Below, one piece after another: positions 476-62,912 of a DNA stretch of 64,000 bases. Numbering within the stretch: the stretch's first letter is position 1; each line of letters begins with the position of its first letter. Position numbers and translations under genes: made by a program. The notes beneath the pieces are model-generated. The model was given only the letters and a program-made list of their open reading frames with translations. It searched no databases and was not told the origin of the DNA. This DNA is from Armatimonadota bacterium. GTDB taxonomy: Bacteria > Armatimonadota > Armatimonadia > Armatimonadales > Capsulimonadaceae. Location: assembly GCA_019239955.1 (NCBI GenBank), contig JAFAZD010000348.1, positions 21,176-85,175 of the forward strand. Reading direction: 5' to 3'.

Positions 476-505
476 TTGACAATCTCTTTTTCCATGTGAT
501 AAGAT
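476..505 (+). promoter_or_regulatory. Sigma70-like promoter for the blaI-like/M56 operon.
   Basis: TTGACA at 476-481, an 18-nt spacer, and an extended -10 (TGA TAAGAT) at 497-505, in an AT-rich patch. Confidence 0.4.
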
Positions 506-552
506 GGAGCGTTCGCGCCCGCCAGTCGGCCGCTGGCGGCGAATGCAAGCCT

Positions 553-1233
553 ATGGATGACAAAGACATGGACGAAAGGGACAGTATGGCGGAAGACGGC
601 GTGCCGGAAGACGCGGCGGGCGGCTCCGGCCAGGCATCGGAGGGGGCCGGCGCGCCGGCGGGCGGTGAGGACGCGGGGGGGCGGCACTGGCTCAAGTACG
701 CCGGGATCGGCGGGCACCGCAAGCCCGGCCCGGGCGGCGGGCGGCTCCGGGCGATCACGTCCCTGGGCAGCCTGGAGGCGGAGGTGCTGGGGGTGCTCTG
801 GGAGATCGGCCGTCCGGCCACGGGCATGGAGGTCATGGAGCACTCCCTGTACAAGCGGCGCGCCCGGGGGGAGGAGCCGGCCTCCTTCGCGACGATCGCC
901 ACCACCCTGCGGCGCCTGACGCAGAAGGGGCTGCTCACCAGCGAGAAGCACGAGCAGCGCACCCCGGTCTACGCGCCGACCGTCAACCGGGAGGAGATGG
1001 CGGCCCGCATTCTCAACAACGTCTCGGAGACCCTGCTGGGCCGGCCCCTGCACGCGCTCCTGCCCCGGCTGGTCGGCGGTTTCCTGCCCCCCACCCCGGA
1101 CGAAGGCACCGGCGGCGATGACGCCGGCGCCAGCCGTGACGCCAACGATCCCGAGGTGCAGCAGCTGCTGCAGGCGCTGGAGGAATTGGCCCGCCGGGAG
1201 GAGGGCGACCCGCACGTGCCCCCGGGGGCATGA
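553..1233 (+). CDS. BlaI/MecI/CopY-family winged-helix transcriptional repressor.
   Basis: Motifs LGSLEAEVLGVLWEIGRPATGMEV and FATIATTLRRLTQKGLLTSEKHEQRTPVYAPTV, followed directly by an M56 partner gene. ATG 553 was chosen because the predicted promoter lies inside the longer GTG-496 ORF; the start is uncertain. Confidence 0.8.
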   Translation: MDDKDMDERDSMAEDGVPEDAAGGSGQASEGAGAPAGGEDAGGRHWLKYAGIGGHRKPGPGGGRLRAITSLGSLEAEVLGVLWEIGRPATGMEVMEHSLYKRRARGEEPASFATIATTLRRLTQKGLLTSEKHEQRTPVYAPTVNREEMAARILNNVSETLLGRPLHALLPRLVGGFLPPTPDEGTGGDDAGASRDANDPEVQQLLQALEELARREEGDPHVPPGA

Positions 1234-1323
1234 CCGCCCGCCGCCGACCGGCGGCCACCGGTCGTCCCGTGGGGAAATCCGCTTCGCCGACCGTTCCACC
1301 GAATTACACGCACACGGCACACC

Positions 1324-2694
1324 ATGGATCTCGCGGCCTTGCATCTTCTCGACGACGTCCGGCGCGTCTGGCGGGGCGGGGCGGCCTGGCACGCACTCGG
1401 CCGCTCCCTGGGATACCTCGTGGGCGTCTTCCTCGCGCGGCACTGGGTCTTGGCCGTGGCCAACGCGGCGCTGACGGCGCTGCTGGGGCTGGGGGCGCTG
1501 CGGCTGGTCCGCCGGCTGTCGCTGGGGCCGTCCATCGAGGACTGGCACCTGCGCCTGCGCCACTTCGTCCTCCTGGCCGCCCTGTGCAAGGGCGCGTTCT
1601 ACCTCATCCTGGGTGACAACCACCGCTTCCGGTCGGGGCGCCCCGTCGGCTTCGGGCTTCAGCTGCCCAGTCCCTTCGACCTGCTCCACCTGGCCCCGCG
1701 CGCCAGTTATTCCGTCTATTCCGTGTGGCGTCCCACGATGGCGACGGAGCTGGTCGGCCCGCTGCTGGCGGGGGCGGACCTCGTCCTGTTGCTGCGGCGG
1801 GGGCTGCAACTGGCGGCGCTGCTGTCCTGGCTCGGGAGCCTCCCGTGCGTCCGCCCCGGCGCGGCGGGCGTGCCGCCGACGGGGCGGGACTGGCCCCGGC
1901 CCGCCCCGGAGCCGGCGGAGGGCCTGCGCCCGGCGCAGGGCCCGCTGGGGGAGCGCGTGGAGGAGGCCCTGCGCCGGGCGGCGGCCGCCCTGGGTCTGGC
2001 CGCGCCGAGAGGGCTCCCGCGCCTGGTGCTGGCCGAATTGCCGGCGCCGACCCCGCTGCTGCTGGGCCTGTGGCGGCCGTACCTGCTGCTGGCTCCCTCC
2101 TTCGCCGCCACCCTCTCGGACGCCGAGATGGAGATGGCGCTGCGGCACGAGCTGGCGCACCTGCGACGGCACGACCACTGGTGGCGCTGGCTGCTCCTCT
2201 GGGTGGAGGACCTCGGCCGCCTCAACCCGCTCACGTCCTGGCTCAGCCGGGAGGCGATGGAGCAGGAGGAGGCCTTCTGCGATCGGCAGGCGGTGTCGTC
2301 GGCGCGGGACGCCGCCGACCTGGCCCAGGCCATCGTCAAGTGCCGGCGGCACCTGCGGGGGTTGCGGGCGCAGTGGGCCGCCCCCCGGCGCGCCGGCCCG
2401 GTCCCGGCCGCCGCCCCGCCTCTGCCGGACGCCCTGGCTCTGCCGGACGCCGTGCTGCCGATGCTGCTTGGCCAGGAGTGGGGGCACCAGGACCCGGACG
2501 CGGTGCTGCGCCGCCGGCTGGCCCGCCTGCTCGCGCAGGCGCAAGGCGCTCCCCCGGCGCGGGCGTCGGCCCTGCATACGCTCCCCCGCGCGGCGCTGCG
2601 GCGCGGACTGCATTGGGGCGCGTTCCTGTTGCTGGCGATGCTGCTGGCGCTGATCGCCTACGCCAAGTTCTTTCTGGTCATCAACTTCTCGTGA
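1324..2694 (+). CDS. M56-family (BlaR1-like) membrane zinc metallopeptidase / signal transducer.
   Basis: HExxH in ALRHELAHLRRHDHWWRW. Hydrophobic N-terminal helices and a C-terminal TM helix. Paired with the BlaI-like gene. No penicillin-binding sensor domain is visible. Confidence 0.85.
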   Translation: MDLAALHLLDDVRRVWRGGAAWHALGRSLGYLVGVFLARHWVLAVANAALTALLGLGALRLVRRLSLGPSIEDWHLRLRHFVLLAALCKGAFYLILGDNHRFRSGRPVGFGLQLPSPFDLLHLAPRASYSVYSVWRPTMATELVGPLLAGADLVLLLRRGLQLAALLSWLGSLPCVRPGAAGVPPTGRDWPRPAPEPAEGLRPAQGPLGERVEEALRRAAAALGLAAPRGLPRLVLAELPAPTPLLLGLWRPYLLLAPSFAATLSDAEMEMALRHELAHLRRHDHWWRWLLLWVEDLGRLNPLTSWLSREAMEQEEAFCDRQAVSSARDAADLAQAIVKCRRHLRGLRAQWAAPRRAGPVPAAAPPLPDALALPDAVLPMLLGQEWGHQDPDAVLRRRLARLLAQAQGAPPARASALHTLPRAALRRGLHWGAFLLLAMLLALIAYAKFFLVINFS

Positions 2695-3310
2695 GGCCCA
2701 TTCGGGTCCTCGTGAGGCCCATTCCGGCATTCCCGGGGGGAGCGCCCGGCGCGGCGGCATGTCCGCGCCCCGGCCGCCGCAGAGTTTCAGGGGGCCTCCC
2801 CTCTCGGGGGCTCGGCCCAGGAAGGAGAGAGAACCGCGCACCCCGGCGGGGTGCCGTCCCCGGGCGACTGGACCGTCCCGATCGGGCCGTAGATCGTCCG
2901 CCGGAAAACTATTTGTCACGTCAACGTAAATTTCATCGCGAAGCCCGCCGGCGCACTTCGGGCCGGCGGCCGGAGAACCCCTCATGCACCCATTGACACC
3001 TGACGCCTTCCGGGCCTGGGCCGCGTCCCCCGCGGACGGGGCAGCGCGCCCGACGAGCGGGGGAGCAGTCCTCCCCGCCGAGTTCGCCGACCCGGTCTGC
3101 TGCTGGAACATCTGTCCGGCGTGGACCGGTCCCCCCAAGCGGCCGCGCCAGTACGGCGGCGCCACCACCCAGTACGGCGGCGCCATCGCCCTGGAGCGGT
3201 CCCCGGAGCCGGCGGCGGTGCGATCCGGCCCCCCGGCACCGGCCGCCGCGCCGCATCTTCCTCGCGCCGGGGCGCCGGCACGGCCGGGCGCGGCCGGGGG
3301 GAGACACCTG

Positions 3311-4648
3311 ATGCGCCGCCTCCTGGTCGAGACGGTCGGGCCGGACCGGCACCTGCTCTTCAACCCGCTGTCCGGCGCGGTCGACCTGGCCTCCGACGCC
3401 GATGTCGCCCGCCTCGACCGGCTCCGGCGGGGCGAGGACGCGGCGCTGACGCCCGCCCAGGAGGCGGCGCTGCGCGCCCGCCTGTACCTGTTCGACGGCC
3501 CCGGCGAGGAGGAGGCCTGCCTGGAGGCCGCCGTGACGGGGGCCTGGGAGCGGATGGCGCGCGCGCAGCCCCAGATGTACACCCTCTGCCCGACGCTCGC
3601 CTGCAACCTGGCCTACGGCTACTGCTTCGAGGGGGACAGCCTGGCGGACAAGCCGCAGGGGGTGATGGCGGAGGAGCAGGTCGGGCGGGCCTTCGCGGCC
3701 ATCGCCCGCCTGCGCCGACAGTACGCCGATCAACCGTCCGCCGATCAGCCCGCCGCCCGCCAGGCGGACGCACTCAGCGGCCCCCCCTGGATCGCCCTGT
3801 TCGGCGGCGAGCCGCTGCTGCCCAGCACCCGCCGCAGCGTCGCCGCGATCCTGCGCCACGCCGCCGCCGAGGGCTTCCTGGTCGCGGCGACCACCAACGG
3901 GGTCAACCTGGCGCGCTTCGAGGACCTGCTGACGGAATACGCCGACATCCTCACGGTCGTCCAGGTCACCCTGGACGGGCCGCGGGCCGTCCACGACGCC
4001 CGGCGCCACCGGCTGGGCGGGCAGGGCACCTTCGACGAGATCGTGCGCGGGGTCGACCTGCTGCTGTCCCTGGGCATCGACGTGGACCTGCGGGTCAACC
4101 TCGACGCCGCCAACGTGGACGCGCTGCCGGCGCTGGTGGACTTCCTCCACGCCAAGGGCTGGCCCGCCCACCCGGCCTTCGCCCTGGCGCTGGCGCCCGT
4201 CACGGTCCACGGGGAGGCGGGGGGCTGCCGGAGCAAGTACGACCGCGCGCTCTCGGAGCTGGAGCTGGCGCGGCGCGTGGTGGCGCTGGCGGAGGCGCAC
4301 CCGCGCGTGGCGCGGCTGTGCCACCTGGGGTTCCTGCGGCACCTGGAGTACCTGGTGAGCGTGCTGGAGCCGGAGAGGCTGGGGCCGGGCCGGCGGGGCG
4401 GGGCGCGGCCGGTCGGGCCGCGCTACTGGTACTGCGAGGCCAGCACGGACAAGCAGTACGTCTTCACCCCGGAGGGGCTGATCTACAGCTGCACGGAGGC
4501 GGTCGGCCGGCCGGAGCACGCGGTGGGCCGCTTCGACCCGGACCTCACGCTGTGGGCCGAGGAGCGCGGGCGGTGGGTGGGGCGGACGATCCTCTCGCAC
4601 CCCAAGTGCCGGGAGTGCGCCATCTCGACGCTGTGCGGCGGCGGCTGA
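3311..4648 (+). CDS. Radical SAM / SPASM-domain protein (peptide-maturase-like). It ends at an in-frame TGA that replaces the last SPASM cysteine.
   Basis: Core strands FGGEPLL, ATTNG and VVQVTLDG. C-terminal KCRECAISTLCGGG is followed by TGA at 4646-4648. GGAGA Shine-Dalgarno 6 nt before ATG 3311. The cluster-binding motif is atypical (CPTLACNLAYGYC). Confidence 0.8.
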   Translation: MRRLLVETVGPDRHLLFNPLSGAVDLASDADVARLDRLRRGEDAALTPAQEAALRARLYLFDGPGEEEACLEAAVTGAWERMARAQPQMYTLCPTLACNLAYGYCFEGDSLADKPQGVMAEEQVGRAFAAIARLRRQYADQPSADQPAARQADALSGPPWIALFGGEPLLPSTRRSVAAILRHAAAEGFLVAATTNGVNLARFEDLLTEYADILTVVQVTLDGPRAVHDARRHRLGGQGTFDEIVRGVDLLLSLGIDVDLRVNLDAANVDALPALVDFLHAKGWPAHPAFALALAPVTVHGEAGGCRSKYDRALSELELARRVVALAEAHPRVARLCHLGFLRHLEYLVSVLEPERLGPGRRGGARPVGPRYWYCEASTDKQYVFTPEGLIYSCTEAVGRPEHAVGRFDPDLTLWAEERGRWVGRTILSHPKCRECAISTLCGGG

Positions 4649-5889
4649 CACATGGCCGCCCGGGAGCGGGCGGGGGGGCCGCGGACCGGCTGCTGCAGGT
4701 CGTGCTGCCCGGACGGGGGCCGGGGCTGCGCCCGGCGCGGCGGGCGGGTGATCCGCCGCGCGCTTCGGAGCCGCCTCGCTCCGCCCGCCCGCCGCACCCG
4801 CCGGAGCCGTTCTGCAACGCGGCCGAGGAGACGGTGCGGGCTTACCTGCGGGCCATGGGGCGCGACGGGGCGATCGAGGACAGGGTGAAAACCCTTTTGT
4901 AAAGATCCCTGTTTGTCAAGTGCCCTGGGACAGAGTGGCAGCCCGCCCTCCGCCTGCTCTACAGCCGGTAACCGGGGCGGGCGGCCGTCTTTGCGTCCAG
5001 TCGCCCCGTGCATGAGCGTCAGTCGGTGGTCTCCGGGTGGCGACCGGGGCGGCAACAGCCTCTTCACCAATCTGAGGGACGAGAGCGCAAGCCGCACCGG
5101 GGGAAGCGGCACACCTCCGGGAACGGGGAAGCGGCACCTCCCCTAATGGGGACTCGACCGCATGCCCTCGCCGCGCAACGCCATCCCCGGCGGTTCGGGA
5201 CGAGGAGGACGGCAAAGCGGGGTGGCAGGCGGGTCGAACCTACGGCGACCGGGGCCGGGCGGCCGAGAGGGGGCGGCTGGCCGAGAACACGGGTGACAGT
5301 GGCATCGCGGACATGCAGTGATACGTTCGTCGAGTACCACGCCGCTGCGATCAGGGTGGCGCGGCGTGTTGCTCGGGCCGCGTGTCGCTCGGGCCGCTAT
5401 TGCCCCTGCGCGCGGCCCAAGCCGGCCCGGCCACTATCGCCGTAGTAGCGATGACACGGCTTCGGAGCAGTCCCCGGTCGAGTCTGTCCTTCCCCCTTTG
5501 GCTCACGGAATGCCTCTGTTATCGGGAGCCTCTGTTGTGGCGCATGGGGAGGGAAGACGGTCCGGGAGGAGACAACGAGGCAATTGATCGCTCGCACGGA
5601 AGCACACCATTCTGTGTTCCTCCCGCCCCATACTCCTCCTGAATACCGTGCTGAGTCCCGACTGCCCAGTTTTGCCGCACTTCGGCGGCCGGAGGCCCCT
5701 CAACAGAGCGAATGGGACCGACCGCCCGAATGACAGCGGAGGTGGCCCGCCTGGCGCGGGAGAGGAACCAGGAGCGGGAGAGGGACCAGGAGGTTGTAGC
5801 GGCCGGATCTATGCCCGCCGGCTCCGAACCCGACGGGCATTGAAATTGAACGCGCATCATCGGCCATGAAAACTTTTGGTAATTCTCCA

Positions 5890-5920
5890 TTGACATTCGT
5901 TGATAATGTTAAGGTATAAT
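5890..5920 (+). promoter_or_regulatory. Candidate promoter for the Trypco2-like/protease pair.
   Basis: TTGACA at 5890-5895 and TATAAT at 5915-5920 in an AT-rich patch. The spacer is 19 nt, which is long. Confidence 0.3.
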
Positions 5921-6091
5921 GCCTGTACCGACGAAGGACCTGTCCGGCTACCCCGCGGAGGCTGTGGACGACGCCGGCCCGGGTCCCGGAGGGGCCGGGT
6001 GCTCACGGAGCTCGTCGATTGGCAGAAGCCTTTCAGTCTGCCGAGACGCCCGGCCCGCGCGGGGCCGAGTGGGGACAGAGGTTGACCGTTT

Positions 6092-6424
6092 ATGACCACC
6101 TTGCTGGAGTTAGAGGGAACACCGACCGGAAGCCCCCGCATTTTCGTCGAGGTGCATGAAGGGGAACTTTCGGGAGGTATCGAGCCGGCCTCGCCGGTGG
6201 ATTGCGTGGTTGAACATGCGCGACAGGCCTTCGATGCGGCGATGGAGAGTGTGAAGGCGACCGTCCAGGCGATCACCCAGAAGTTTAACCGCCTGGACCA
6301 CCTCGACGGCACGCCGGACGAGTATGAAGTCGAATTCGGACTGAAGCTGACCGCCGAAAGCGGCGTGATCATCACCTCCGGTGGCGTGGAGGCAAACTTC
6401 AGGGTCACGCTGAGATGGAAGTGA
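6092..6424 (+). CDS. Trypco2-like (trypsin-co-occurring domain) small protein.
   Basis: 110 aa. C-terminal signature YEVEFGLKLTAESGVIITSGGVEANFRVTLRWK. The stop lies 12 nt before the protease start. Locally lower G+C. Confidence 0.75.
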   Translation: MTTLLELEGTPTGSPRIFVEVHEGELSGGIEPASPVDCVVEHARQAFDAAMESVKATVQAITQKFNRLDHLDGTPDEYEVEFGLKLTAESGVIITSGGVEANFRVTLRWK

Positions 6425-6436
6425 GGGAGAACATCC

Positions 6437-7582
6437 GTGCCACGAGAAGACCATATCGTCCGGATATTGAGCGGTCGCGGGGGGATCGCGGGGGTCGGAT
6501 TTTTCGTCACGTCTCAGCAGCTCCTGACCTGTGCCCACGTCGTCAACTTTGCGCTCGGACGGGAACCGTATGAGCAAAGCCACCCCCCGAAGGAATCAAA
6601 GATCCTGGTGGAGTTTCCCTTCGATCCACAAGCTCCAGCACAGGAGGCGCGGGTCGTCGGCTGGGAGGCCGCCACCAAGCTGACGCGCCGCTGCCGCGAC
6701 AGCGGCGGTGACATCGCCACGTTGGAGATCCAGGCCGCCCGCCCGCCCGCCGTGGGATTCTCGCTCATGTCCGGCCTCCGGCCCATCGCCGGCCGCCCGG
6801 TCGAGGCGTTCGGTTATCCCGGCGACTCCGAAATCGGGGTGTGGGCGGAGGGATCAATTAGCGGGCGGACGGAGACCGGGTGGTTCCAGCTCAATGGCGA
6901 CGACGCCCGCCCCGACTACATCACGCAGGGCTTCAGCGGTGGGCCGGTGTGCGAGTATGGCACCGACACCGTCGTGGGGATGGTGGTGCGGGCCGATACT
7001 CGCGGGAGCAGGCGCTCCTACATGATTCCAGCCCAGATGCTCAAACAGCGGATCCGGGTGGCCAGACACCGAGGCTCCATCGGGTGGGCCATCCACTACC
7101 TCCGGACTTGTACACTGGCCGCTCTCTTGACGGACCTGGCGGCGGCGGAGCGGCAGGGATTCGAGGACGACGCCTGTGACCAGGTCAAGACGGTCCTCGC
7201 CGTCGTCGCTCACCATGACCCGGAAAACCCACTGCACTCGATCATGTATGCCGCGACCCGCTCCCAGTTCGAGACCTTCCTGCGGGTCTACGACGAGTGG
7301 AACGGGCCGGGACACAACGCGCAGTTCGCCGGCCTCCGCCGGGAGAAGCTGAAAGAGTTGCGCAGCGTCCGGGAAGCGATCAGCAGGAAGATCATCGAGG
7401 ACGACGGCGTGTTTGCGGATGTCCTGGACTGGCGATTCCTCGACGCGATCCATCGTGAAATTCCGAAGACCTGTGGGAAACACCCGGAAAAGTTCCGGCA
7501 TCTGATCACCGCGGGGCGGGAGTACTTCAAGCGCAAGGAGTACCTCGGTCCCGGCGCGACGGGCAGTTCGGCTTCGGCCTAG
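6437..7582 (+). CDS. Cytoplasmic trypsin-like (S1) serine protease with an unassigned ~190-aa alpha-helical C-terminal domain.
   Basis: Triad contexts LLTCAHVV (His), GGDIATLEI (Asp) and QGFSGGPV (Ser). GTG start preceded by GAGGGAGA. No signal peptide. Confidence 0.85.
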   Translation: MPREDHIVRILSGRGGIAGVGFFVTSQQLLTCAHVVNFALGREPYEQSHPPKESKILVEFPFDPQAPAQEARVVGWEAATKLTRRCRDSGGDIATLEIQAARPPAVGFSLMSGLRPIAGRPVEAFGYPGDSEIGVWAEGSISGRTETGWFQLNGDDARPDYITQGFSGGPVCEYGTDTVVGMVVRADTRGSRRSYMIPAQMLKQRIRVARHRGSIGWAIHYLRTCTLAALLTDLAAAERQGFEDDACDQVKTVLAVVAHHDPENPLHSIMYAATRSQFETFLRVYDEWNGPGHNAQFAGLRREKLKELRSVREAISRKIIEDDGVFADVLDWRFLDAIHREIPKTCGKHPEKFRHLITAGREYFKRKEYLGPGATGSSASA

Positions 7583-7617
7583 CCCCCGCGAGGACCCGTC
7601 ACGGCCACCGACCCGCC

Positions 7618-7796
7618 ACAAGGAAAGACTCCGCCTGGCGGGGCGGAGTCGGGGAGTGCGGAAAGAGGGGGCAGTGGTCAAGATAGACACATGCGGAATT
7701 TGTCGGTAACCGCGGGCTACAGTCGTGGGCCGGGCGGCCCACAAGATTCCTCACTAGGCGGGGTCTAGCGGACGGCGTCCTTTCTCTATCAAGACC
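7618..7796 (-). ncRNA. Candidate ~180-nt small RNA defined only by the promoter and terminator above.
   Basis: Promoter at 7803-7831 and terminator at 7620-7650 on the same strand. No SD-preceded ORF lies between them. Contains an internal hairpin GTGGGC-CGCCCG-GCCCAC. No known RNA family was recognised. Confidence 0.2.
7620..7650 (-). terminator. Intrinsic-terminator-like hairpin read on the minus strand.
   Basis: On the minus strand: GACTCCGCC-CCGCCA-GGCGGAGTC followed by TTTCCTT. On the plus strand the hairpin is not followed by a T-run. Confidence 0.4.
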
Positions 7797-7802
7797 GTAA
7801 TC

Positions 7803-7831
7803 AACTTACCACGTTCGGCGGCAGATGTCAA
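7803..7831 (-). promoter_or_regulatory. Sigma70-like promoter pointing toward the 3' end of the protease gene.
   Basis: Minus strand TTGACA (7831-7826), a 17-nt spacer, then TAAGTT (7808-7803). Confidence 0.35.
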
Positions 7832-8678
7832 CAGCAGTTCTGCCGGTTTTTCCGCTGAGGCGCACGGGCACCGGCGGCGCCCCAAGCGTCCGCGCTCGCC
7901 CGGTCAGGACGTCGAACCTCCCCGGCCTCCCGGCAGGACGCCAGGAAGCACCGCGGTCCGCGGGGACCACCAGGACTGCGTCTGTCGGCAGCGAGTTCAT
8001 CCACCACGAGAGGCCCGGCAACGGCGCGCGGGCATCACCTTCACGCGCGCCCACCCCTACGGCACGACCCACACCGGCGGCACGAACGGCAGACTCACTC
8101 GGTGACTGGAGCGTGGACAGGCGGCTGGTCCGGGCGGGCCGCGAGGCGGGCCCGGGGAGACAGCTCGGCGGCAGCCGCCCCTGCCTCCGGGACGCGGGAG
8201 GCGCGCCGCGGGTGCGTCGTGGTCGGCCAGCGGTCGGCCGGCGTCCTTGGTGAAGCGTGCCATGATGGTCCCCTCCCCCGAGTTCGGCTCCCACTCGCCC
8301 AATACACGCGACATGTGAAACCCACGGGAACGGCCATTGAGCGTCCCCAGACAGCAGCGGAGTGTCCCCGGCCGAGGACTGCGGCGTAAAAAAGCGACGC
8401 GCCGACGCCGCATGGCTTCCCCCAATACTTCGGTCCATGCCGCCGCTCACGGGCCGGGCACGCCCGACCCGTTCCGGGCGGCACTTCAGCCGGCTTGACA
8501 CCGGTCTTGACGCCGGGGACGACTTCGGGGACGATCTGCGCCCTGAATTCAGCGCCGGCCGGACAAAACAGCCTCCGCTTCAACGCCGCCTCCGCTTTGT
8601 GCCCAGGGGATGCTCCCCCCGCGTGACCGTCCGACTTTCGGGGGGCGCGACGTCCGCTCTTTCCCGGGCCGACGAAGG

Positions 8679-14248: not shown

Positions 14249-17200
14249 TCAGGCCTGCCCCCCCGGGTCCGGCCCCCCCGCCCGGGGACGCAGGCGCTGG
14301 GCCAGCGCCGGGTCCAGCAGGGCGGCCCGCTCCGCCGCCGCCTCGAACTCCGCCAGCCGCCCCTGCCGCCGGCACAGCTCCGCCAGACCCGCCCACGACG
14401 GCCCGAACCCCGGCTCCTGCCCGACCGCCGCCCGCCACTGCGCCTCCGCCTCCGCCCACCGCCCCATGTCCTGGTACACCAGCGCCAGGTTGTGGTGCGC
14501 CTTGAACCCCGTCATCGACACATCCAGGCTGTCGATGTGGCCCACCTCCCGGTCCGTCAGCAGCCTTAAGTAACTGGCCTCGGCGGCGGCCAGGTCGCCC
14601 GCCTGGTGGTGGAGAACCCCGGCCCGGAACAGCAGCTCCGGGTCCCGCGGGTACAGCGCCAGTCCCTGCTCCGCCCGCGCCACCGCCCCCGCCACGTCGC
14701 CCTGCCCCTGGAGGCACCCCGCCAGCATCGCGTAGACCTTGCGCACCGTGGACTCCTGGGGCCGACTCAGCGCCAGGCACCGCTCCAGCGCCGCCCGCGC
14801 CCGGTCGTACTCCTTCATGTGGAAGGCCGTCATCCCGATGTTGAACAGCACGAACGGGTGGTCCGGCCGGTCCCGCAGGTCCAGCTCCAGCAGCCGCAGG
14901 TCCCGCGCGCGCTTCCGGCGCTGGCCCTCCGGGCTGTGGTCGTAGCCGGAGTGGACCACGTACAGGTCGGTGCGCTCGACCTGGCTCCCGGCCCGGTAGA
15001 TCGGCTCCAGGATCTGCTCGTGGATGCGCCCCTCGAAGCGCAGGCCCAGGCCGTTGCGGAACAGCTTGACGTGGTCGACGACCGTGCAGCCGGCCTCCCC
15101 CGGACCGGGCGGGATCTGCACCTGCACGATCAGGCCCGCGGTGCGCTCCGGCGCCCGCAGCGCCAGGTCGTGGAGCCGCCGCCCGCAGTCCTCCGGGAGG
15201 GTGTCGTCGGCGTCCATCCAGAAGATCCAGTCGCCGGTGGCGTGGGCCAGCGAGGCGTTGCGCGCGGCCGAGAAGTCGTCGCACCAGGCGAAGGACTCGA
15301 CGCGCGCGCCGTGCGCGCGCGCGATCTCGGGCGTGCGGTCGGTGGAGCCGGTGTCCACCACGACGACCTCGTCCACCCAGGGGCAGACGCTCCGCAGGCA
15401 GTCACCGAGGACGCGCTCCTCGTCCCGGACGATCATGCACAGCGAGATGGTCGGGCCGCCGTGGCGGCGGGCGGGCTCCAGTCGGGTGTCCTCCCCGGCC
15501 CGGACGGCGGCCGGCGGCCGCCACTGGACCGGCAGGGCGGGGAGCGGCGGGGCCGTCACCGGTCGGGGCGGCGCTTCCGCAGGCGGTGGGCCGGGCCTCT
15601 CCCGCCCCGGCGGGCCCTCGCCCCTCGCCGCGCGGCCGCCCTCGGGTTCAGCGCCCGTCGGCGCGAGCCCGGTCCACCCCGGGACGGCCCGGGACCGCAG
15701 GTCGCCCAGCAGCCCCGCCGCCGCCGCGGCCGAGTGCCCCCACGTCCACCCCGACGCCACCCGCCGGGCCGCCGCCTCGCCCTTGCGCCGCGCCAGCCCG
15801 GGGTCCTGACGCACCTCCCGCAGCAGCCCCGCCAGGTCGTCGGGGTCCACCTCGAACATCCAGGGCAGCCCCACGCACTCCCACGGCCCGACCCGCCCTT
15901 CCGGGCACGGCCGGCGGGCCGCCGCCACCCGCCAGCCCACGGCCTCGTCCACGAAGTCGTCGGTCGGCCCCCCGGCCGGCACGATGACCGGCGTCCCGCA
16001 GGCCATCGCCTCCAGCGCCGGCAGGCAGAAGCCCTCCCCCCGGTAGGGCGCCACCAGGCAGTCCGCCGCCGCGTACACCCCCGCCAGCCGGTGCGCCGGC
16101 AGCTCCTCGTCCAGGTAGACGACCCGCGGCATCGCCGGGTCGGCGATCATCTCCCGGATGCGGGCCGCCTCGTTCTGGTCCCGGTAGACGGTCCGCGTGC
16201 CCGTGTCCTTGACCACCAGGGCCACGGCGTCCGCCGGGCCGAAGGCGCGCCGGTAGGCCTCCAGGAGCACGTCCGCCCCCTTGCGGTGGATCGTGCCCCC
16301 CACGTACAGGAACACGAACCGGCCGCGCAGGCCCTCCGGGGTCTCCGCCGCCCCGGCCTCGGTCGTGAAGACGTAGGGGGGCGCGTCCGGGCGGAAGACG
16401 GACGCGTCCACGCCCAGCGGCAGCAGGCGCAGCCGCGCCTCCGCCACCCCGCTCGCCCGGTAGACCTCCCGGACGTAGCGGCTGTAGCACCAGACCTCGG
16501 CGACGTGCGCCGCGATCTGCGGCACCCACTCCCGGGGCAGGTAGCCGTACTCCCAGGGCTGGACCAGCACGAGGCGCCCCTCGTCGGCGGGGCCGAGCCG
16601 GGGCGGGAAGCCGTGGCGCACATGCACGTCGGCGGGGCCGGAGAGCGGCGCGAACGCCCGCGCCGCCAGCCGCGCCAGGCGCGGGTCCCCGTCGGGGCCG
16701 AACTCGGGCGCCTCGGTCGGGCAGACGGACAGCTCCACGCCGGGGGGACCTACCAGTGCCGGGTCCAGCAGCCCCAGGCACAGCTCCCGGTTGACGTGCG
16801 CCAGGCTGTGCCACCGCAGCTGCGCCCCCTCCCAGCGCACCCGGATGGGGACGGCGTCAGGCGGGGAGACGTGGGGCGGCCCGGTCGCCCCCGGGGCCTG
16901 CGACGCGCCGGCCCCGGGGGCGGCGGGGGCCATCACCGGGTGCGGCGTGTGCCGCGCGCGCACCTGCGCCGCGGCCGCCGCCACCAGCGGCCCCACCGCC
17001 GCCCGGCTGAAGTGTGCCGCCACGTGCCGCCGCGCCCGCTCGCCCAGCCGCCCCGCCTCCTCCCGGTCCGCGACGACCCGCCGCATCAGCGCGCGCAGGT
17101 GCGCGGCGCGCGGCTCCGCCCAGCGGTGCCCCCGGTACGCCGGCACCTCCCGCCACCCCCGCTCCGGCACGTCGGCCAGGTCGTAGTCGACCAGCAGGCT

Positions 17201-19804
17201 CGTCTCCGGCGTCATGAAGGCGGTGCTGCCGCCCCAGCCCGTCCCGATCACCGGCAGCCCGCTCGCCATTGCCTCCAGGTACGGCCGCCCCCACCCCTCG
17301 CCCCGGCTCGGCAGCACGTACGCCCCGCTCGCCCCGTAGAGGGCGACGAGGCCCTCCGGGTCCAGGTGCTCGAACGCGAACCACACCCGCCCGCGCGCCG
17401 ACAGTTCGCGCGCCGCCACGTCCGCGCCGAGCGCCTCCCGCACGCACGCCGCCGCCTGTGCCCGGATGCCGTCCGCGCCCAGGCCCAGGCTGGACCAGAC
17501 CCGGAGCAGCAGCCGCACGTCCGGCTCCCCCGCGCGGCCCTCCCCCGCGAACTCCTCCAGGAAGGCGCGCAGCAGCACGTCCCAGCCCTTGTGCAGCGTC
17601 CAGTCGAAGACCGCCAGGAACACGAAGGCGTCCCCGGCGAGGGCCTCCTGAACGGAGGCCGGCAGGCCCGCGCGAGCCGCCCCCCGGGCGGGCGCGTCCC
17701 GGAACGGCCCCGGGTCCAGGCAGCCGGGCACCACCATCAGCTTGTCCTCCGCCACGCCCGCCCGCGCGAAGGTCCCCCGGTTGAACTCGCCGGGCACCCA
17801 CACCGCGTCCATCGCGTTGCACGCCCGCACCCAGTCCGCCGGCAGCCGGTCCGTCTCGAACATCGTCCGCCCCACCGCCGCCCGCGCCCGAGGGTCCCGC
17901 CGGAACAGCGGGGCGAAGTTGTGGACCACCTGCACGAAGCCCGGCGCCGCCGCCCGCCGCGTCAGGGCCTCCAGCCGCCGCCGCTCCCCCGCCCCCAGCG
18001 GCGCCTCCCGCTCGCCCCACGGCGTCACCTGCGCGGCCACCGGGCCGCCCGCCGCCCCGTCGCCGCCCGCCGCCTCCTCGCCCTGGGCTCCCCCCGGCCC
18101 GCCGGCCGCGCCGGTCTCCCCGCCGGCCTCACGCGTTTCCTCCCCCCCGGCGGCGCCGGTCTCCTCCAGGGCCAGCACGAGCTGGCGCACCTCGTCGCCG
18201 TAGCCGCTCGGGTCCAGCAGCGGCCCGCTCCACACCACCGGCGCCCCGCCCGCCGCCAGCCGGACCTCCGTAGGCGCCGGGCGGGGCCGCCGCCGCGCCG
18301 CCGCCAGCGCGAACTCCAGGACCTCTTCCGCGCCCGCCGGGACCTGCTCCTCCGGCGGCTGCAGCTGCCCGCCCCTGAAGCGGCGCTCGTAGAGCTTGGC
18401 GTGCTGCTCGAACCGGTAGAAGGCGGACAGGAACGAGTAGAGGAAGCCGTGGACGCCGTCCTGGGGGGCGCCGCCCCGGTCGTAGTAGGCCTGGAAGTCC
18501 GCCACGAAGTGGGCGACCGCGTCCTGCCAGTGGAAGGGGCGCCCGTCCCGGTGCATGTCCGCCGCCTCCCCGTCCGTGTAGCGGTTGAGCTTCTCCAGGT
18601 AGTGCGCCAGGCTGTCGAAGGAGAAGTGCTCCAGCGCCAGGCCCGGGTCGTCGGGCGGGAACGAGAGGACCGGCCCGTCCACCTGCGCGCCCGAGTGCAG
18701 GCGCGGGTTGAAGTGGAACCGCCCGTTCCTCAGCAGCCGCGGCGCCGTGTAGCCCGGGTAGAGGCAGCGCATCCAGCGGCCGGCGAAGTGGTGGCGGAAG
18801 GGGATGAGCAGCGCCGCGAAGGGCGGGTCCGGCCCGTCGATCAGGGCCCGCAGCGCCGGGCCGAGGCCGGGGGGGACGCGCTCGTCGGCGTCCAGGTAGA
18901 ACACCCAGCGGCACGCCGCCCGCATCGCCGACACGTTGCGCGCCCGGTCGAAGTTGGGGATCCGGGGGTGGCGGACGATGTTGTCCGTGTAGCGGCGGGC
19001 GATCTCGACGGTGGCGTCCTCGCTCTCCATGTCGCAGACGATCGTCTCGTCGGCCCAGCCGGTCAGGGTCTCCAGGCAGGCCGCGATGTGGCGGGCCTCG
19101 TTGCGCGTGTGGACGACGGCGGAGACGCCGGCGGGGTACGGCTCGGCCCCCGGGCGCATCAGGGCGCGCAGCGCCGGGGCCGCGGGCGCGCCGCGCAGCA
19201 CGCCCAGGACGTGCTCCTTCCCGCCCAGGCGCGGGTCGCCGTAGTAGCGCAGCCCCGCCACGTCGAAGGGGGCCAGCACCCGCGCCCACTCCTCGAGCGG
19301 CAGCAGGCGCTCGTCGCCGAACTCCGGGGCGAAAGGGTAGAAGACGGAGGGGACGCTGAAGACCACCCAGTCCGCCAAGGCCACCTGCTGGGCCAGCGCC
19401 GCCCGGATTTGGGGCGCCGGGAAGTGCTCGAGCACGCCCTGGTGGTGGATCACGTCGTAGCGGCCCCGCGCGGCGGAGTGAGGGTCAGGATAGAGATCGA
19501 AGAGGTCCCCCACCCGGAATGAGGCCCGGCCCCCGAGCACGTTGTTGACCAGGCGGGCGCGCTCCACGAGCGCGGGGGCGTAGTCGATGCCCTCGGCCCG
19601 GAGGCCGCGCTCGGAGAGCCAGACGGCGCCGTAGCCGGAGCCAACCCCCGTCTCCAGAGTGCGGCCGCCCGGCGGGCAGCGCCGCAGGACCTCGGTGAGG
19701 TACTCCAGGAGGAAGGGCGCGCCGTTGAGTCCGGCATAGTGGCGCGGCACGTCACACAGCGGCGTCTGGTTGTAGAGGTCGGCCCACCGGGCGGACGCGG
19801 ACAT
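14249..19804 (-). CDS. Giant multidomain glycan-biosynthesis enzyme: SAM methyltransferase + GT2 + two GT4-like domains + GT2 + TPR repeats.
   Basis: LETGVGSGYGAVWL (methyltransferase motif I). VSAVVHTRNEARHI and ISLCMIVRDEERVL...WMDADD (GT2 domains). Two blocks with the GT1/GT4 E-x7-E-like motif (PSRGEGWGRPYLEAMASGLPVI and PYRGEGFCLPALEAMACGTPVI). C-terminal TPR-like repeats. Confidence 0.85.
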   Translation of the reverse strand: MSASARWADLYNQTPLCDVPRHYAGLNGAPFLLEYLTEVLRRCPPGGRTLETGVGSGYGAVWLSERGLRAEGIDYAPALVERARLVNNVLGGRASFRVGDLFDLYPDPHSAARGRYDVIHHQGVLEHFPAPQIRAALAQQVALADWVVFSVPSVFYPFAPEFGDERLLPLEEWARVLAPFDVAGLRYYGDPRLGGKEHVLGVLRGAPAAPALRALMRPGAEPYPAGVSAVVHTRNEARHIAACLETLTGWADETIVCDMESEDATVEIARRYTDNIVRHPRIPNFDRARNVSAMRAACRWVFYLDADERVPPGLGPALRALIDGPDPPFAALLIPFRHHFAGRWMRCLYPGYTAPRLLRNGRFHFNPRLHSGAQVDGPVLSFPPDDPGLALEHFSFDSLAHYLEKLNRYTDGEAADMHRDGRPFHWQDAVAHFVADFQAYYDRGGAPQDGVHGFLYSFLSAFYRFEQHAKLYERRFRGGQLQPPEEQVPAGAEEVLEFALAAARRRPRPAPTEVRLAAGGAPVVWSGPLLDPSGYGDEVRQLVLALEETGAAGGEETREAGGETGAAGGPGGAQGEEAAGGDGAAGGPVAAQVTPWGEREAPLGAGERRRLEALTRRAAAPGFVQVVHNFAPLFRRDPRARAAVGRTMFETDRLPADWVRACNAMDAVWVPGEFNRGTFARAGVAEDKLMVVPGCLDPGPFRDAPARGAARAGLPASVQEALAGDAFVFLAVFDWTLHKGWDVLLRAFLEEFAGEGRAGEPDVRLLLRVWSSLGLGADGIRAQAAACVREALGADVAARELSARGRVWFAFEHLDPEGLVALYGASGAYVLPSRGEGWGRPYLEAMASGLPVIGTGWGGSTAFMTPETSLLVDYDLADVPERGWREVPAYRGHRWAEPRAAHLRALMRRVVADREEAGRLGERARRHVAAHFSRAAVGPLVAAAAAQVRARHTPHPVMAPAAPGAGASQAPGATGPPHVSPPDAVPIRVRWEGAQLRWHSLAHVNRELCLGLLDPALVGPPGVELSVCPTEAPEFGPDGDPRLARLAARAFAPLSGPADVHVRHGFPPRLGPADEGRLVLVQPWEYGYLPREWVPQIAAHVAEVWCYSRYVREVYRASGVAEARLRLLPLGVDASVFRPDAPPYVFTTEAGAAETPEGLRGRFVFLYVGGTIHRKGADVLLEAYRRAFGPADAVALVVKDTGTRTVYRDQNEAARIREMIADPAMPRVVYLDEELPAHRLAGVYAAADCLVAPYRGEGFCLPALEAMACGTPVIVPAGGPTDDFVDEAVGWRVAAARRPCPEGRVGPWECVGLPWMFEVDPDDLAGLLREVRQDPGLARRKGEAAARRVASGWTWGHSAAAAAGLLGDLRSRAVPGWTGLAPTGAEPEGGRAARGEGPPGRERPGPPPAEAPPRPVTAPPLPALPVQWRPPAAVRAGEDTRLEPARRHGGPTISLCMIVRDEERVLGDCLRSVCPWVDEVVVVDTGSTDRTPEIARAHGARVESFAWCDDFSAARNASLAHATGDWIFWMDADDTLPEDCGRRLHDLALRAPERTAGLIVQVQIPPGPGEAGCTVVDHVKLFRNGLGLRFEGRIHEQILEPIYRAGSQVERTDLYVVHSGYDHSPEGQRRKRARDLRLLELDLRDRPDHPFVLFNIGMTAFHMKEYDRARAALERCLALSRPQESTVRKVYAMLAGCLQGQGDVAGAVARAEQGLALYPRDPELLFRAGVLHHQAGDLAAAEASYLRLLTDREVGHIDSLDVSMTGFKAHHNLALVYQDMGRWAEAEAQWRAAVGQEPGFGPSWAGLAELCRRQGRLAEFEAAAERAALLDPALAQRLRPRAGGPDPGGQA

Positions 19805-19997
19805 GGAACACCCTCTCGGATCTCGGACACCCTCTTGGACCGGCCGGGACCAGCCGTGCATACGGAATATTCGCCGGCCACGCGTTTTCCGGTCCTCACC
19901 ACGGGCCGATGTCCCGTCCCCGCGCGATGGCCGAGGGCGGCCCGCCGTTCTTGGGTAACTCCACCCTTAAAGACGGACGGTGATTTAAGTCAAAGGT

Positions 19998-34752: not shown

Positions 34753-37700
34753 TTATTTAAACCTATCACTCATTTGCGCGCAAGTAGCAACAATAGCTCC
34801 GATACCGCCGAGGATCCCTCTCAGACAAGCAGTGTTACAAGCTGATTGCGCGAGAATGCCCTTTATACAACTCCAAGCACAAGGAACAAAGGTTGTTTCC
34901 TCGTCGATTGCACTTGCAGCCGCACATAAAGGTATAAACCCTAAAACTTGGATTTTACAGAGTATAGGCAGGGCAATCCAGCAGCCTGCAGCGGCATTCT
35001 TAAGATAAGATCTTAGACATTTCTCGAAACCATCTAAGGAGAATAAACCGCTAGGATCAACATAGGACGCAGGATTGTTGCTTACGTATCGATATAAGTT
35101 GGCCTCTGTTAAGAAGTCTACAACTGGATCTCTGCTGATCCATCTTCCCCTGTTCGTGTCTAGATGCCTGGCGCGGACGTAGACGCGGTTGGCCCCGTCA
35201 CGCCGGTAACCGACGTGTCCACCGAACAGGTACGGGATCGTGGCGCTCCCGATGTTCTTCTCCTCGCCGAAGGCTGTGTAGACGTAGCTGTCCGTCACAC
35301 CGCCGCCGATTGCAGTCAAGATACGGGTATTAAGCGACGGGTCAAATCCGGGGAACTGACTCACCCCGCCCTGACGTACCGAAACAAGGTTACCCCAGTC
35401 GCTGGGAAAGCCGGTGTTTTGCAACCGCGTAACTCCGCTCCCGTTCGTCTCTAGCAGAAGATTCAACCCGTCCCATACGAACTGCGTTGTCCCCGTCGAA
35501 GCCGCCAAGCTCCGCCGCAGCCCATCCGCCGAATAGGCATACGTCTCCACCTGGCCGCTGGGCAGCGCCAGGCCCGTCAGCCGGTTCTCCGCGTCCCAGG
35601 CGTAGCTCGTCAGCGACCCGCCCGCGTTGACCAAGAGTCGGTTGCCGTTGGCGTCGTAGCTGTGGGTCGTGACCGTCGTCCCCATCCGCTCCATCAGCAG
35701 CTCGTTGGCCGGCCCGAATGTCGAAACTGTCACCACGCCCGCGTCGGTCGTGCCCGTCCGGTTGCCCAGCGGGTCGTAGGCGTAAGTCACGGAGAAGGGC
35801 GTCGTGCCGCCGCGCTGCTCGCTCACCAGCTGGTAGGCCGCGTCGTAGCCGTAGGTGGTCACGCTCCCGTCCAGCTCCGCCAGCGTCAGCCGGTTGCCGG
35901 CGGTGTCGTAGGTGGACGTGTAGACCGCGCGCCCCGCCCCGGACGCCGTGACGTTCGCCAGGAGCACCTCACGGCCGGCCGGGTCGTACACGTGGCTGAC
36001 CGTCACGCCATTGCCCAGCGTCTTGACCAGCTCCCGGTCTAGCGCGTCATAAGAGATGGTCGTGGCCTCGCCGAAGGGGTTAGCGATCCGGGCCAGCCGG
36101 TTCTGGGAGTCGTAGGCGTAGGTCGTCGTGCCGCCGTCCGGATCGAGCAGGGTCGTGCGGTTGCCAGCGGCGTCGTAGGCGTAGGTCAGCGCCTTGCCGG
36201 TCGGGTAGAGGACCGAGGCCGGCCGGCCGTCACGGTCGTAACTGTACGACGTCACGCCGGTGGAGTCCTGCATGGTCGCCTGCTGGCCGGCCGGGTCGAA
36301 GGTGTAGGTGACACGGGTGCCGTCTCGGTAGAGCCGGCCCGCCTCGCGGTTGAGGGCGTCGAAGGTGTAGGTGGTCGGCCAGTTCCGGGCATCCACGCGC
36401 AGGACACGGTTGACCGCACCATCATAGGAGTAGGAGATGAACACCCCCAGTGGATCTTGGCTGGATAATAGGCTACTTCGGTGATCGTACGTGTTGGTTG
36501 TGCGGTTGCCCAGGGCATCAACCACTGCCAACATGCGCCCGGCCAGGTCATAGACCACTGTAGTCGTATACCCGAGCGGGCCCACGCTCGCCACCGGGCG
36601 CGTCAGTAAGTCATACAGCGTTGTCGTAGTGTGCCCCAGCACGTCGACCGAGGCGACGGCAAGCCCAGAGAGGTCGTAGACCGTGGTGGTGGCGTGCCCG
36701 AGCGGGTCCACGCTTGCCACCGGCCGGGAGGCGACATCGTAGACCCTGGTGGTGGTGTGCCCCAGCGCATCAACCGTGGCGACCTGGCGGCCTGCGGCGT
36801 CGTAGGCGGTGGTGCTCACGTTCCCCAGCGGGTCCGTCACGCTCACCATCCGCCCCAGCGGGTCATATGCACGGGTCGTCACGTGCCCGAGCGGGTCCGT
36901 CACGCTCACCGGCTTGTCCCAGACGCCGTAGGTGGCCGTCGTCCGGTTCCCCAGCGCGTCGATGAGGATCGTCCGATTCCCGTTGCTGTCGTAGCCGCTG
37001 GTGGTGGTGTGCCCCAGCGGGTCCGCCACCGAGACCACCCGGTTCTGCGCGTCGTAGATCCAGCTAGTGCGGTTCCCCAGCGGGTCCACCGCGGCGATGA
37101 CGTTGCCCCCCAGGTCATAGACGCTCGTCCACACGTGCCCCAGCGGGTCCGTGACCCCCGTCCGGTTCCCGAACCCGTCGTACCCGTACGTGGTGGTGTT
37201 GCCCAGCGGGTCCGTCGTCGAGGTGCGCAGGCCCCGCGCGTTGTAGGCGTAGCTGGTCGCGTTCCCCAGCGGATCCACCGATGCCTGCAGCCGCCGCAGC
37301 GCCCCCGTCGTGTCGTAGGGACTGCCCGCGTACCCGTAGACGTAGCTGGTCGTGCCCCCGTCCGCCGCCACCACCGCCACCGTGTTGTTGTAGGCGTCGT
37401 GGACGTACGTGGTGGTCCGCCCCAGCGGGTCGATCGTGGCCGTCGGGTTGAAGGAGCCGTCGTAGTTGGTCGTGGTGACCGCCCCCAGCGGGTCCTGCTG
37501 CGAGACCAGCCGCCCGTCGGTGCGCACGAAGGTGCTCACGTTGCCCAGCGGGTCCTGCGTCCCCAGCAGCGTGGCGGCGATCCCCAGCGCGTGGGTGGTC
37601 ACGTGCCCCAGCGCGTCCGTGACGCTCATCGTGCCCGTCCCGTAGGCGTAGGTCGTCGTCCCCACCCCCGCCACCGTCCGCGCCGCCACCCGGTTGCTCC

Positions 37701-42468: not shown

Positions 42469-43542
42469 TCATGTCCCGTCGCCCGCCACCGGGTGTGCCG
42501 CCAGCGAAGTCCGGCGGCGCTCCCCGGCCGTCCCGCCGCCGTCCGCAGGGACGCCGGGAGGCTCCTCTAACAGGGTGCCGGGAGGCTCCTCGCCCAGCGC
42601 CTCCCGGAGCAGGGAGCGCTCCTCCGGCGTCAGCCGGCCGCCGGCCGCCGCCTCCAGCGTCCGGCGGACGAACGGCTTCAGGGCGGTCCCGTCCGCGCCC
42701 GCCGCGCCGGCCGGCGCGTCACTGGCCGCTCCGCCCGCGCCGGCCGGCGCGGCGGGCTGCCCCTGGCCGGTGCGCTCCTGGATCAGGCCGCGCAGGCGCG
42801 CGACGGTCAGCGCGCAGCCGCCCACGCGCCGCCCCTCCGGGCGGGCCGCCTGGCGGGCGAGGGCGACGAGGTCGTCCTCCGCGAGGCTGTCCTGGGCCCG
42901 CTGGAGGAGGATGCCGTGGCTGCCGCTCAGGCGCCCGGCCTCGATCAGGGCGGCGACGGGGCCGGGCAGGGAGGCCAGGTTGAACAGGTCGTGGATGCGG
43001 GCGCGTCCGAGGCCGACCTCGGCGCCGACGTCGTCCCAGGTGACCTTGTGGTTCTGGGCCTTGCGGATCTCGTACAGACGCCGCAGGGCGCGGCCCTTCT
43101 CGATGTCCGTCAGGCCCGCGCGCAGGATGTTCTCGGCGAGCTGCGCCGCCTGGACGTCCTCGTCGGCCAGGTCGCGCACGCGGGCGGGGATGCGGACCCG
43201 GCCGGCCATCCGGGCGGCCCGCCAGCGCCGCTCGCCGGCCACCAGGCGGTAGGGCCCGCCGGGGGCGGCGGGGGGCCGCACCAGGACCGGCTGGAGGACG
43301 CCCCGGCGGGCGATGTCGTCCGCGAGGGCGCGCAGCTCGGCCTCGTCGAAGTGGCGGCGCGGCTGCCCGGGGTCGGGCGCGATCTCGTCCAGGAGCAGGT
43401 CGCGCGCGTCGGTGGCGACCCCGGCGTGGGCGCGGTCGCCCTCCTCGAGCAGGCCGGCGGCGGCGGCCACCGTGTCCGCGAGGCCGGCGCGGAGCCGGTT
43501 CCGGGACGAGGGCGACTCAGTTGCCGGTGATCTCGACGACAC
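42469..43542 (-). CDS. parB: ParB-family partition protein.
   Basis: VLQPVLVRP...YRLVAGERRWRAARMAG, AQLAENILRAGLTDIEKGRAL. Lies downstream of parA. The GTG start overlaps the parA end and is uncertain. Confidence 0.85.
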   Translation of the reverse strand: MSSRSPATESPSSRNRLRAGLADTVAAAAGLLEEGDRAHAGVATDARDLLLDEIAPDPGQPRRHFDEAELRALADDIARRGVLQPVLVRPPAAPGGPYRLVAGERRWRAARMAGRVRIPARVRDLADEDVQAAQLAENILRAGLTDIEKGRALRRLYEIRKAQNHKVTWDDVGAEVGLGRARIHDLFNLASLPGPVAALIEAGRLSGSHGILLQRAQDSLAEDDLVALARQAARPEGRRVGGCALTVARLRGLIQERTGQGQPAAPAGAGGAASDAPAGAAGADGTALKPFVRRTLEAAAGGRLTPEERSLLREALGEEPPGTLLEEPPGVPADGGGTAGERRRTSLAAHPVAGDGT

Positions 43543-62363: not shown

Positions 62364-62597
62364 TCGGGAGTGTTCATCCCCACTCAGTGTGAGGCAATTG
62401 CTGACTCCATTCGCCTTGTCAGCTACGAACCCGGTTCATCTCCACGCCGTGGAGCATTTTCAGTGTACCTGGGTTCGTCCTACTTCATGTCACAATAAAA
62501 CGATGGAAAACTATGCTGCGTTCTCCCTCACTTCGTGGTATGATAGCACAGGAACTTACGAAGTGTTCGTAGCTAAAGCATACACGAGGAGAAAAAA

Positions 62598-62810
62598 ATG
62601 AATAACCCAGGACAACAAGCGTTCCATGTTGATCGCCGGCCTGGCCGGCCGCTGATGGGCAAAGAGCGGCGTGTGACGCTCACCTTGACTATGGACCCGG
62701 GCGTCGCGGATCAACTGAGGGAGCTTGCCTATCGCCACGATCTCTCATGCTCGCGCTTCGTAGAAATGCTGGCGATTGAGCTGCTCAACAGCAACCGCCG
62801 CAATCAATAG
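62598..62810 (+). CDS. Ribbon-helix-helix (CopG/Arc-like) DNA-binding protein inserted between cas3 and cas8e.
   Basis: Beta strand RVTLTLTMD, then helices PGVADQLRELAYRHDLS and CSRFVEMLAIELL. GAGGAG Shine-Dalgarno. Low-G+C segment. Confidence 0.7.
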   Translation: MNNPGQQAFHVDRRPGRPLMGKERRVTLTLTMDPGVADQLRELAYRHDLSCSRFVEMLAIELLNSNRRNQ

Positions 62811-62909: not shown

Positions 62910-62912
62910 CTA

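Follow-up and report, generated by a model that had tools for sequence, protein, structure and literature searches.

The window analysed here is a 64,000-nucleotide (nt) stretch of DNA from an Armatimonadota bacterium (assembly GCA_019239955.1, contig JAFAZD010000348.1, positions 21,176 to 85,175 of the forward strand). It carries, at 6092 to 7582, two tightly coupled genes, the first for a small protein of the Trypco1 family and the second for a trypsin-like serine protease that continues into a helical C-terminal domain, here called the C-domain. On balance, we lean towards reading the pair as a Pepco-protease conflict module in minimal form, made up of two genes, that would act through abortive infection or programmed cell death. 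The kind of system is already known, and the genuinely new element is the C-domain, an uncatalogued helical domain family that partners several effector types. An original prediction, made from the sequence without database searches, had proposed a minimal protease-based conflict module; the kind of system it named holds, but its Trypco2 call and its hint of a HEPN motif do not, and the effector role it gave to the C-terminal domain probably does not.

Trypco1 and Trypco2 took their names from work on NTPase-centred conflict systems, where one or the other, but not both, adjoins a trypsin-like peptidase (Kaur et al., 2020, eLife, PMC7159879), and they have since been renamed Pepco (Evans et al., bioRxiv 10.1101/2025.11.14.688446). 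SsPepco, a Trypco2-type protein of Streptomyces subrutilus, is a denaturation-resistant β-barrel of 9-10 subunits, and an adjacent Avs4-fused trypsin-like protease cuts it after I97, removing a 2-kDa C-terminal tail. The truncated protein kills E. coli, and toxicity requires the catalytic serine together with a phage portal trigger. Other sensors fused to the protease are FGE, TM-STAND and peptidoglycan-binding domains (10.1101/2025.11.14.688446).

Gene 1 (positions 6092..6424, plus strand) encodes 110 amino acids from an ATG start and is recorded as MBV9852064.1, hypothetical protein. Its product matches the Pfam family Trypco1 (PF19493) at E 9.2e-23, over profile positions 8-97 of 98, and the NCBIfam family CU044_2847_fam (NF041216) at E 2.7e-18. 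The protein had been taken for the Trypco2 type; this assignment was rejected, given the Trypco1 match and the lack of any match to the Trypco2 profile (PF19631) even at E up to 10, in a scan in which SsPepco matched at E 5e-18. A hydrophobic-moment scan places a helical segment at about residues 33-66, followed by two strongly amphipathic β-strands at residues 76-86 and 95-110, in which hydrophobic and charged residues alternate as they do in the barrel strands of SsPepco. In an alignment with the Pepcos of three related loci (L001, L009 and L012), an isoleucine, I94, is invariant in the turn joining these strands, 16 residues from the C-terminus, and is the only invariant isoleucine in the aligned Pepcos of the window type. 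That the protein is cleaved at I94 is a matter for speculation. A hydropathy scan finds no transmembrane segment in the product of either gene.

Gene 2 (6437..7582, plus strand) is an open reading frame of 381 amino acids with a GTG start and coding-type codon G+C. Residues 1-198 (6437..7030) form an S1 serine protease domain of the HtrA/DegS type, recognised from a Trypsin_2 match at residues 19-182 (E 1.9e-11), from its catalytic triad and from structural comparison with Foldseek. The intact triad and missing signal peptide reported in the original prediction were borne out: H34, D92 and S167 are invariant in an alignment of eight full-length relatives, and gene 2 has no transmembrane or signal-like segment (maximum 19-residue hydropathy 1.3), so the protease is predicted to be cytoplasmic. 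An AlphaFold2 model of the full-length protein has a predicted local distance difference test score (pLDDT) of 90.8 and a predicted template-modelling score (pTM) of 0.86, and its Foldseek matches to HtrA, DegS, MucD and MarP (E ~3e-9 over ~205-229 columns) cover the protease half only. The full-length pTM indicates that the C-domain is docked on the protease and not freely tethered, and the model suggests a fixed docking reminiscent of the PDZ-gated HtrA and DegS. Among solved structures these proteases come nearest to the protease half, and the likeness extends to a docked, non-catalytic C-terminal domain that in the model could gate the protease allosterically; unlike the HtrA/DegS (S1C) enzymes, the window protein bears a bundle of eight helices that does not resemble PDZ, lacks a signal peptide, is predicted to be cytoplasmic and is paired with a Trypco1 gene. 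Among the relatives, one 346-residue protein (P0042) can be aligned to the trypsin domain over its N-terminal half, yet the TCAHV histidine motif is missing there and Pfam gives no trypsin match; it may be an inactivated version of the protease.

The remainder of gene 2, residues 199-381 (7031..7582), had been described as all-helical and unassignable, and this description stands. Modelled alone with AlphaFold2, residues ~199-370 fold as eight helices (pLDDT 87, pTM 0.83), and the domain found no match in any library tried. Foldseek returned no significant fold neighbour, the best values being E 0.69 in the PDB and E 0.77 in BFVD, with no HEPN entry; a profile search of the PDB gave no match; and scans of 71 members of the family with Pfam, NCBIfam, PADLOC and PHROGs gave nothing consistent and no match to the HEPN clan, effector-associated domains (EADs) or Death domains. 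A phage or plasmid origin was also considered and rejected, since tblastn found nothing in either collection, the one holding 50,697 records of phages and the other 72,556 of plasmids. The domain does have relatives: a HMMER search of 1.84 billion cluster representatives recovered 114, of which 20 lie at E up to 1e-10 and one exceeds 35% identity. The resulting 115-sequence alignment defines a signature of G213, W217, R223, D233, L234, E238, G241, C247, Y285, W288, N289, R301, R312, D331, P350 and F353, in which W288 and R301 are conserved in every sequence. On the evidence available, the C-domain is an uncatalogued domain family. From its fusions to other effectors, we predict that it is a sensor or regulatory module.

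Most representatives (93 of 114) are stand-alone proteins of at most 215 amino acids, and the other 21 are fusions. Twelve of the fusions join the C-domain to a trypsin-like domain, and one of these twelve is a 781-residue protein in which PNP_UDP, TRADD-N, trypsin and C-domain follow one another; three carry a TIR domain, one a PNP_UDP domain and one a Mrr-type restriction endonuclease placed after the C-domain, and in four the C-domain follows an unassigned N-terminal region. Conflict systems use all three of TIR, PNP and Mrr as standard effector heads. A constant C-domain joined to interchangeable effectors points to a sensor, regulator or adaptor and away from an effector, and we regard the domain as probably a sensor or regulator. 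The 781-residue protein (P0023; locus L011, 538-2883), with its PNP_UDP nucleosidase and TRADD-like N-terminal domains, has no Trypco1 gene upstream, and in it a fused effector head appears to have been swapped for the separate Pepco gene on the same chassis of protease and C-domain. The clearest defence-island-like context found for the family is that of a TIR-C-domain protein from a Methylibium metagenome-assembled genome (MAG) (P0091; locus L010, 2238-7278), which adjoins genes for an OLD-family AAA_15/TOPRIM nuclease and a DUF2130 protein. One stand-alone C-domain gene has a resolvase gene on one side and an integrase gene on the other, with an IS21 element close by.

The two genes of the window are real and belong together, as held by the original prediction, which had noted their 12-nt gap and locally low G+C. 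Both are open reading frames with coding-type G+C at the three codon positions (0.62/0.43/0.75 for gene 1 and 0.65/0.48/0.82 for gene 2), in a gradient weaker than that of the neighbouring genes. Their junction (6425..6436, plus strand) reads TGA-GGGAGAACATCC-GTG, and a Shine-Dalgarno-like GAGGGAGA overlapping the stop codon of gene 1 indicates translational coupling. The sole close homologue of gene 2, P0002 at locus L001, is 74% identical and is preceded by a Trypco1 gene at the same 12-nt gap; the junction there is TGA-GGAGGAACATCC-ATG, with the Shine-Dalgarno-like element retained. Identity between the two gene 2 sequences is 78%, 84% and 49% at codon positions 1, 2 and 3, and the far greater conservation of the first two positions argues for purifying selection. 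A 107-amino acid gene downstream of the L001 pair has no counterpart in the window.

The pairing reaches well beyond this one homologue. For distant trypsin-C-domain proteins, with an overall identity of ~31-34%, the gene immediately upstream is again Trypco1, overlapping by 11 nt in P0020, separated by 2 nt in P0025 (in two contigs) and by 13 nt in P0043. Thus a Trypco1 gene lies between -11 and +13 nt upstream in all five two-domain trypsin fusions examined, down to ~30% identity, and the co-occurrence of homologues that the original prediction had made a test of its reading is what was found. Besides the window, the arrangement was seen at loci L001, L009 and L012/L013 and in GCA_015689235.1. 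None of the five fusions has an NTPase nearby. At the window, the lack of an adjacent STAND or other NTPase gene, noted at the outset, extends through the neighbouring genes within ~15 kb, and the sole P-loop protein found further off is a ParA. One relative pair is flanked by RNase D-like and DnaJ genes.

Members of the close subfamily are very rare, and their distribution is extremely patchy. Scans seeded with the proteins recovered no relative from 185,579 species-representative genomes and one trypsin-only match from the JGI metagenomes, and scans for exact cores in collections of genomes, metagenomes and viruses yielded no further copies of the pair or of the candidate small RNA described below. 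The members looked up are all metagenome or MAG singletons annotated as hypothetical, and the window proteins are themselves recorded from an Armatimonadetes MAG.

Because a Trypco2-type Pepco has been shown to be a protease-activated pore, gene 1 probably encodes the effector of the window pair and the C-domain is probably its sensor. We suggest that the product of gene 1 would be held as a latent effector, a small soluble protein whose amphipathic β-hairpins would assemble into an oligomeric barrel, and that this barrel would become membrane-active after site-specific cleavage; a pore function for a Trypco1-type protein is proposed here by analogy with its sister family. Gene 2 would supply a cytoplasmic HtrA/DegS-like protease kept inactive until needed, with the C-domain standing in for the STAND NTPase, FGE or other sensors of the described Pepco-protease systems. 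On sensing a cue of infection or stress, the C-domain would release or activate the protease, probably through a conformational change or oligomerisation, and the activated protease would then cleave the Pepco, leaving the cell permeabilised. The sensing role of the C-domain, the nature of its trigger, the site of cleavage and a role in phage defence are thus all proposals of this model.

The described Pepco-protease modules, represented by SsPepco-SsAvs4, resemble the window pair in having a small Trypco-family gene immediately upstream of an intact-triad trypsin-like protease, an extra non-protease domain on that protease and amphipathic β-strands, predicted for the window protein, in the small protein. 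They differ in the partner domain, since the window protein has 381 amino acids, with a helical domain of 170, in place of a 1638-amino acid Avs4 STAND NTPase or of FGE, TM-STAND or peptidoglycan-binding sensors. The ternary systems of vWA-MoxR/VMAP and STAND (PMC7159879) likewise include Trypco1 and trypsin neighbours, and their combination of a constant module with variable effectors also fits the C-domain. In contrast to these systems, no vWA, MoxR, iSTAND or STAND component is present in the window or in its four two-gene relatives, where the arrangement is reduced to two genes.

Several observations weigh against our reading. The characterised Pepco is of the Trypco2 type whereas gene 1 is of the Trypco1 type, and BLASTP between the gene 1 product and SsPepco reaches only a non-significant E of 0.039. 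The gene 1 product also has no counterpart of the disordered, charged tail that SsPepco loses from its C-terminus on cleavage, ending instead at the last β-strand of the profile (...TLRWK); activation of the window-type Pepcos may therefore differ in detail from that of SsPepco. PADLOC matches neither gene 1 nor the C-domain. The closest neighbours of the pair in the window (BlaI/BlaR1-like, radical SAM, TIG membrane protein and glycosyltransferase genes) are not defence genes and form no defence island. The association with defence islands that had been put forward as a check is missing from these immediate surroundings; among the relatives, one TIR-C-domain gene lies beside the OLD-family nuclease gene. 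Finally, the four stand-alone C-domain contexts examined contain no effector or protease neighbour and no consistent partner, and a pure sensor label does not easily explain why stand-alone copies make up the bulk of the family.

The many stand-alone copies would be explained by an alternative that we consider unlikely, in which the C-domain, akin to the EAD or Death-like domains, serves as an adaptor through homotypic contacts or as a module for oligomerisation. It would then connect the protease, or a TIR, PNP or Mrr head, with a partner that is not linked to it but bears the same domain, either a stand-alone copy or a sensor encoded elsewhere. The division of the family into 93 solo and 21 fused representatives is the distribution that was used to define the EADs (PMC7159879). 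The C-domain is also all-helical, like the Death-type adaptors, and like EAD1-11 and the bacterial Death-like adaptors it occurs both on effectors (trypsin, TIR, PNP and restriction endonuclease) and alone. It differs from them in having no sequence or fold match to either (neither Pfam nor Foldseek finds one) and in being, with ~170 residues and eight helices, about twice the Death-like size. An NTPase or other core component is found on none of the 114 representatives, the longest of which is the 781-residue protein. Nor does the 64-kb window hold a second copy of the domain, and the lack of a consistent partner for the four stand-alone copies examined also tells against this alternative.

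The original prediction had instead made the C-terminal domain the toxic effector, for example a HEPN-like RNase, with the protease as its regulator and the Trypco protein as an accessory, and this we now consider highly improbable. The window protein does contain the Rx5H string RFLDAIH within a domain that is helical, as HEPN domains are, and the invariant polar residues D233, E238, C247, W288-N289, R301, R312 and D331 could form an active site. In the 115-sequence alignment, however, the column of the motif arginine (R333) is occupied by E, Q or K, and that of the histidine (H339) by Y in 68, F in 16 and H in 12 of 111 sequences; with no HEPN or other fold match for the domain, RFLDAIH was rejected as a HEPN motif and put down to chance. 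Fusions of the domain to TIR, PNP and Mrr would moreover mean two effectors and no sensor, and in the sister Trypco family it is the small protein that is the effector by experiment. A non-immune function, with gene 2 as a regulatory or quality-control protease and gene 1 as its small substrate or chaperone partner, or else a non-functional remnant in decaying acquired DNA, appears quite improbable. The non-defence neighbours of the pair, the relative between RNase D-like and DnaJ genes and the HtrA/DegS-like fold of the protease are in keeping with such a function, and the ~1.1-1.4 kb of gene-free DNA on each side could be decayed sequence. Against it, the coding signature, the intact triad and the coupled junction have been kept across 26% protein divergence, and gene 2 is under purifying selection. 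Trypco1 is known only from conflict-system contexts, the other partners of the C-domain are TIR, PNP and Mrr, and the distribution of the subfamily is extremely patchy, with not one relative among the species-representative genomes scanned. A Pepco-protease module with the C-domain as its sensor remains the reading that we favour.

The module lies in an islet of lower G+C (5250..8000, no strand assigned), where the composition profile falls to 0.62-0.67 from 0.70-0.79 in the flanks, in a window whose overall G+C is 71.1%. The islet was probably acquired horizontally: the contig that bears the closest relative of the pair, at locus L001, has a G+C of 57.7%, and a low-G+C islet together with a 74%-identical copy in a 58% G+C organism indicates mobility. 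A search for direct or inverted repeats or att sites flanking the islet found only short, G+C-rich repeats at chance level. On both sides the pair is bordered by sequence that had been called poor in open reading frames, and neither flank (4649-6091, 1443 nt; 7583-8678, 1096 nt) has any with a coding signature; the downstream flank is nonetheless not empty, as it holds a conserved candidate small-RNA gene.

This candidate is a block 3' of gene 2 on the minus strand, convergent with that gene, in which window positions 7620-7797 are 73% identical to L001 1642-1838. Its identity stands well above that of the third codon positions of gene 2 (49%). The block ends in an intrinsic terminator (7620..7650, minus strand), found by a terminator scan as a 9-bp G+C-rich hairpin (7650-7627) followed by a T-rich tail, and the hairpin is kept in L001 with a longer T-run after it. 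The candidate structured body (7651..7797, minus strand; ~177 nt including the terminator) was identified from conservation and folding. It has a closing stem of GGUCUUGAUAGA/UCUAUCUUGACC, in which one pair change is compensatory, and a conserved GCUAG/CUAGC hairpin. The predicted folds of the two loci are similar, with folding z-scores of -3.7 and -2.8. Upstream are promoter-like elements (7803..7831, minus strand) with a -35 of TTGACA (7831-7826), a 17-nt spacer and a -10 of TAAGTT (7808-7803), matched in the same register in L001 by TTTACA, 17 nt and TAACTT; the window site scores below the threshold of the consensus scan. With these elements, the candidate gene spans 7620-7831 in the window and 1642-1880 in L001. 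Coding potential in the block was rejected, as the two sequences share no reading frame and differ by indels that are not multiples of three. Antisense regulation of the operon, raised by a 17/20 match to the GFSGGP-coding region, was rejected as well, the duplex energies being no better than those of shuffled controls. Rfam has no match for the RNA, nor any across the window, where the sole tRNA call lies elsewhere. The small RNA is thus a candidate drawn from a comparison of two sequences.

If the candidate is included, the evidence can be drawn together in a broader proposal, which we hold tentatively and place on the unlikely side: the C-domain would be a new family of compact, NTPase-free sensors, or of integrated decoys that arose from a stand-alone protein of the cell or of a mobile element, and would exert direct control over a set of exchangeable death effectors (a Pepco-cleaving protease, TIR, PNP or Mrr), and in the window subfamily the convergent small RNA would be a third component, for instance an RNA regulator or antidote.

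Elsewhere in the window, the region upstream of the islet (496-4648) encodes a BlaI-like repressor, a BlaR1-like M56 sensor-protease and then a 554-amino acid radical SAM protein, with no evident tie to the module. A 1870-amino acid multidomain protein (14249-19861, minus strand) combines methyltransferase, GT4, GT2 and TPR domains, and its GT4 part also matches the Pfam family 'GT4-conflict'; ARAGORN places the tRNA call, a tRNA-Arg, at 15111-15191 within the same gene, where it is probably spurious. The gene at 34753-38616 (minus strand), with small open reading frames downstream, encodes 1287 amino acids with RHS repeats (RHS_repeat E 3e-90); its product is probably a polymorphic toxin. Genes for ParB and a MerR-fused ParA, together with a large serine recombinase, occupy 42469-44503 (minus strand) and 51053-52723 and suggest an integrated mobile element in mid-window. 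The last segment (59655-64000) is the start of a type I-E CRISPR-Cas locus, with Cas3 (HD and helicase domains, 902 amino acids) followed by Cse1, which runs past the end of the window.

Death effectors gated by a protease are coming to be seen as a major principle of immunity in prokaryotes. To our knowledge, the Pepco systems characterised so far all rely on large sensors, for instance STAND NTPases; a 381-amino acid protein combining the protease with a helical domain of 170 residues would, if our reading is true, be among the smallest sensor-protease-pore circuits. Its small size makes the pair attractive for studying how such a protease is licensed and how a tail-less Trypco1-type barrel is activated, and, should the linked small RNA prove real, it would bring to these modules a layer of RNA that has not been reported for them. 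Naming and characterising the C-domain would annotate a whole family of 'hypothetical proteins', including its ~90 stand-alone lineages.

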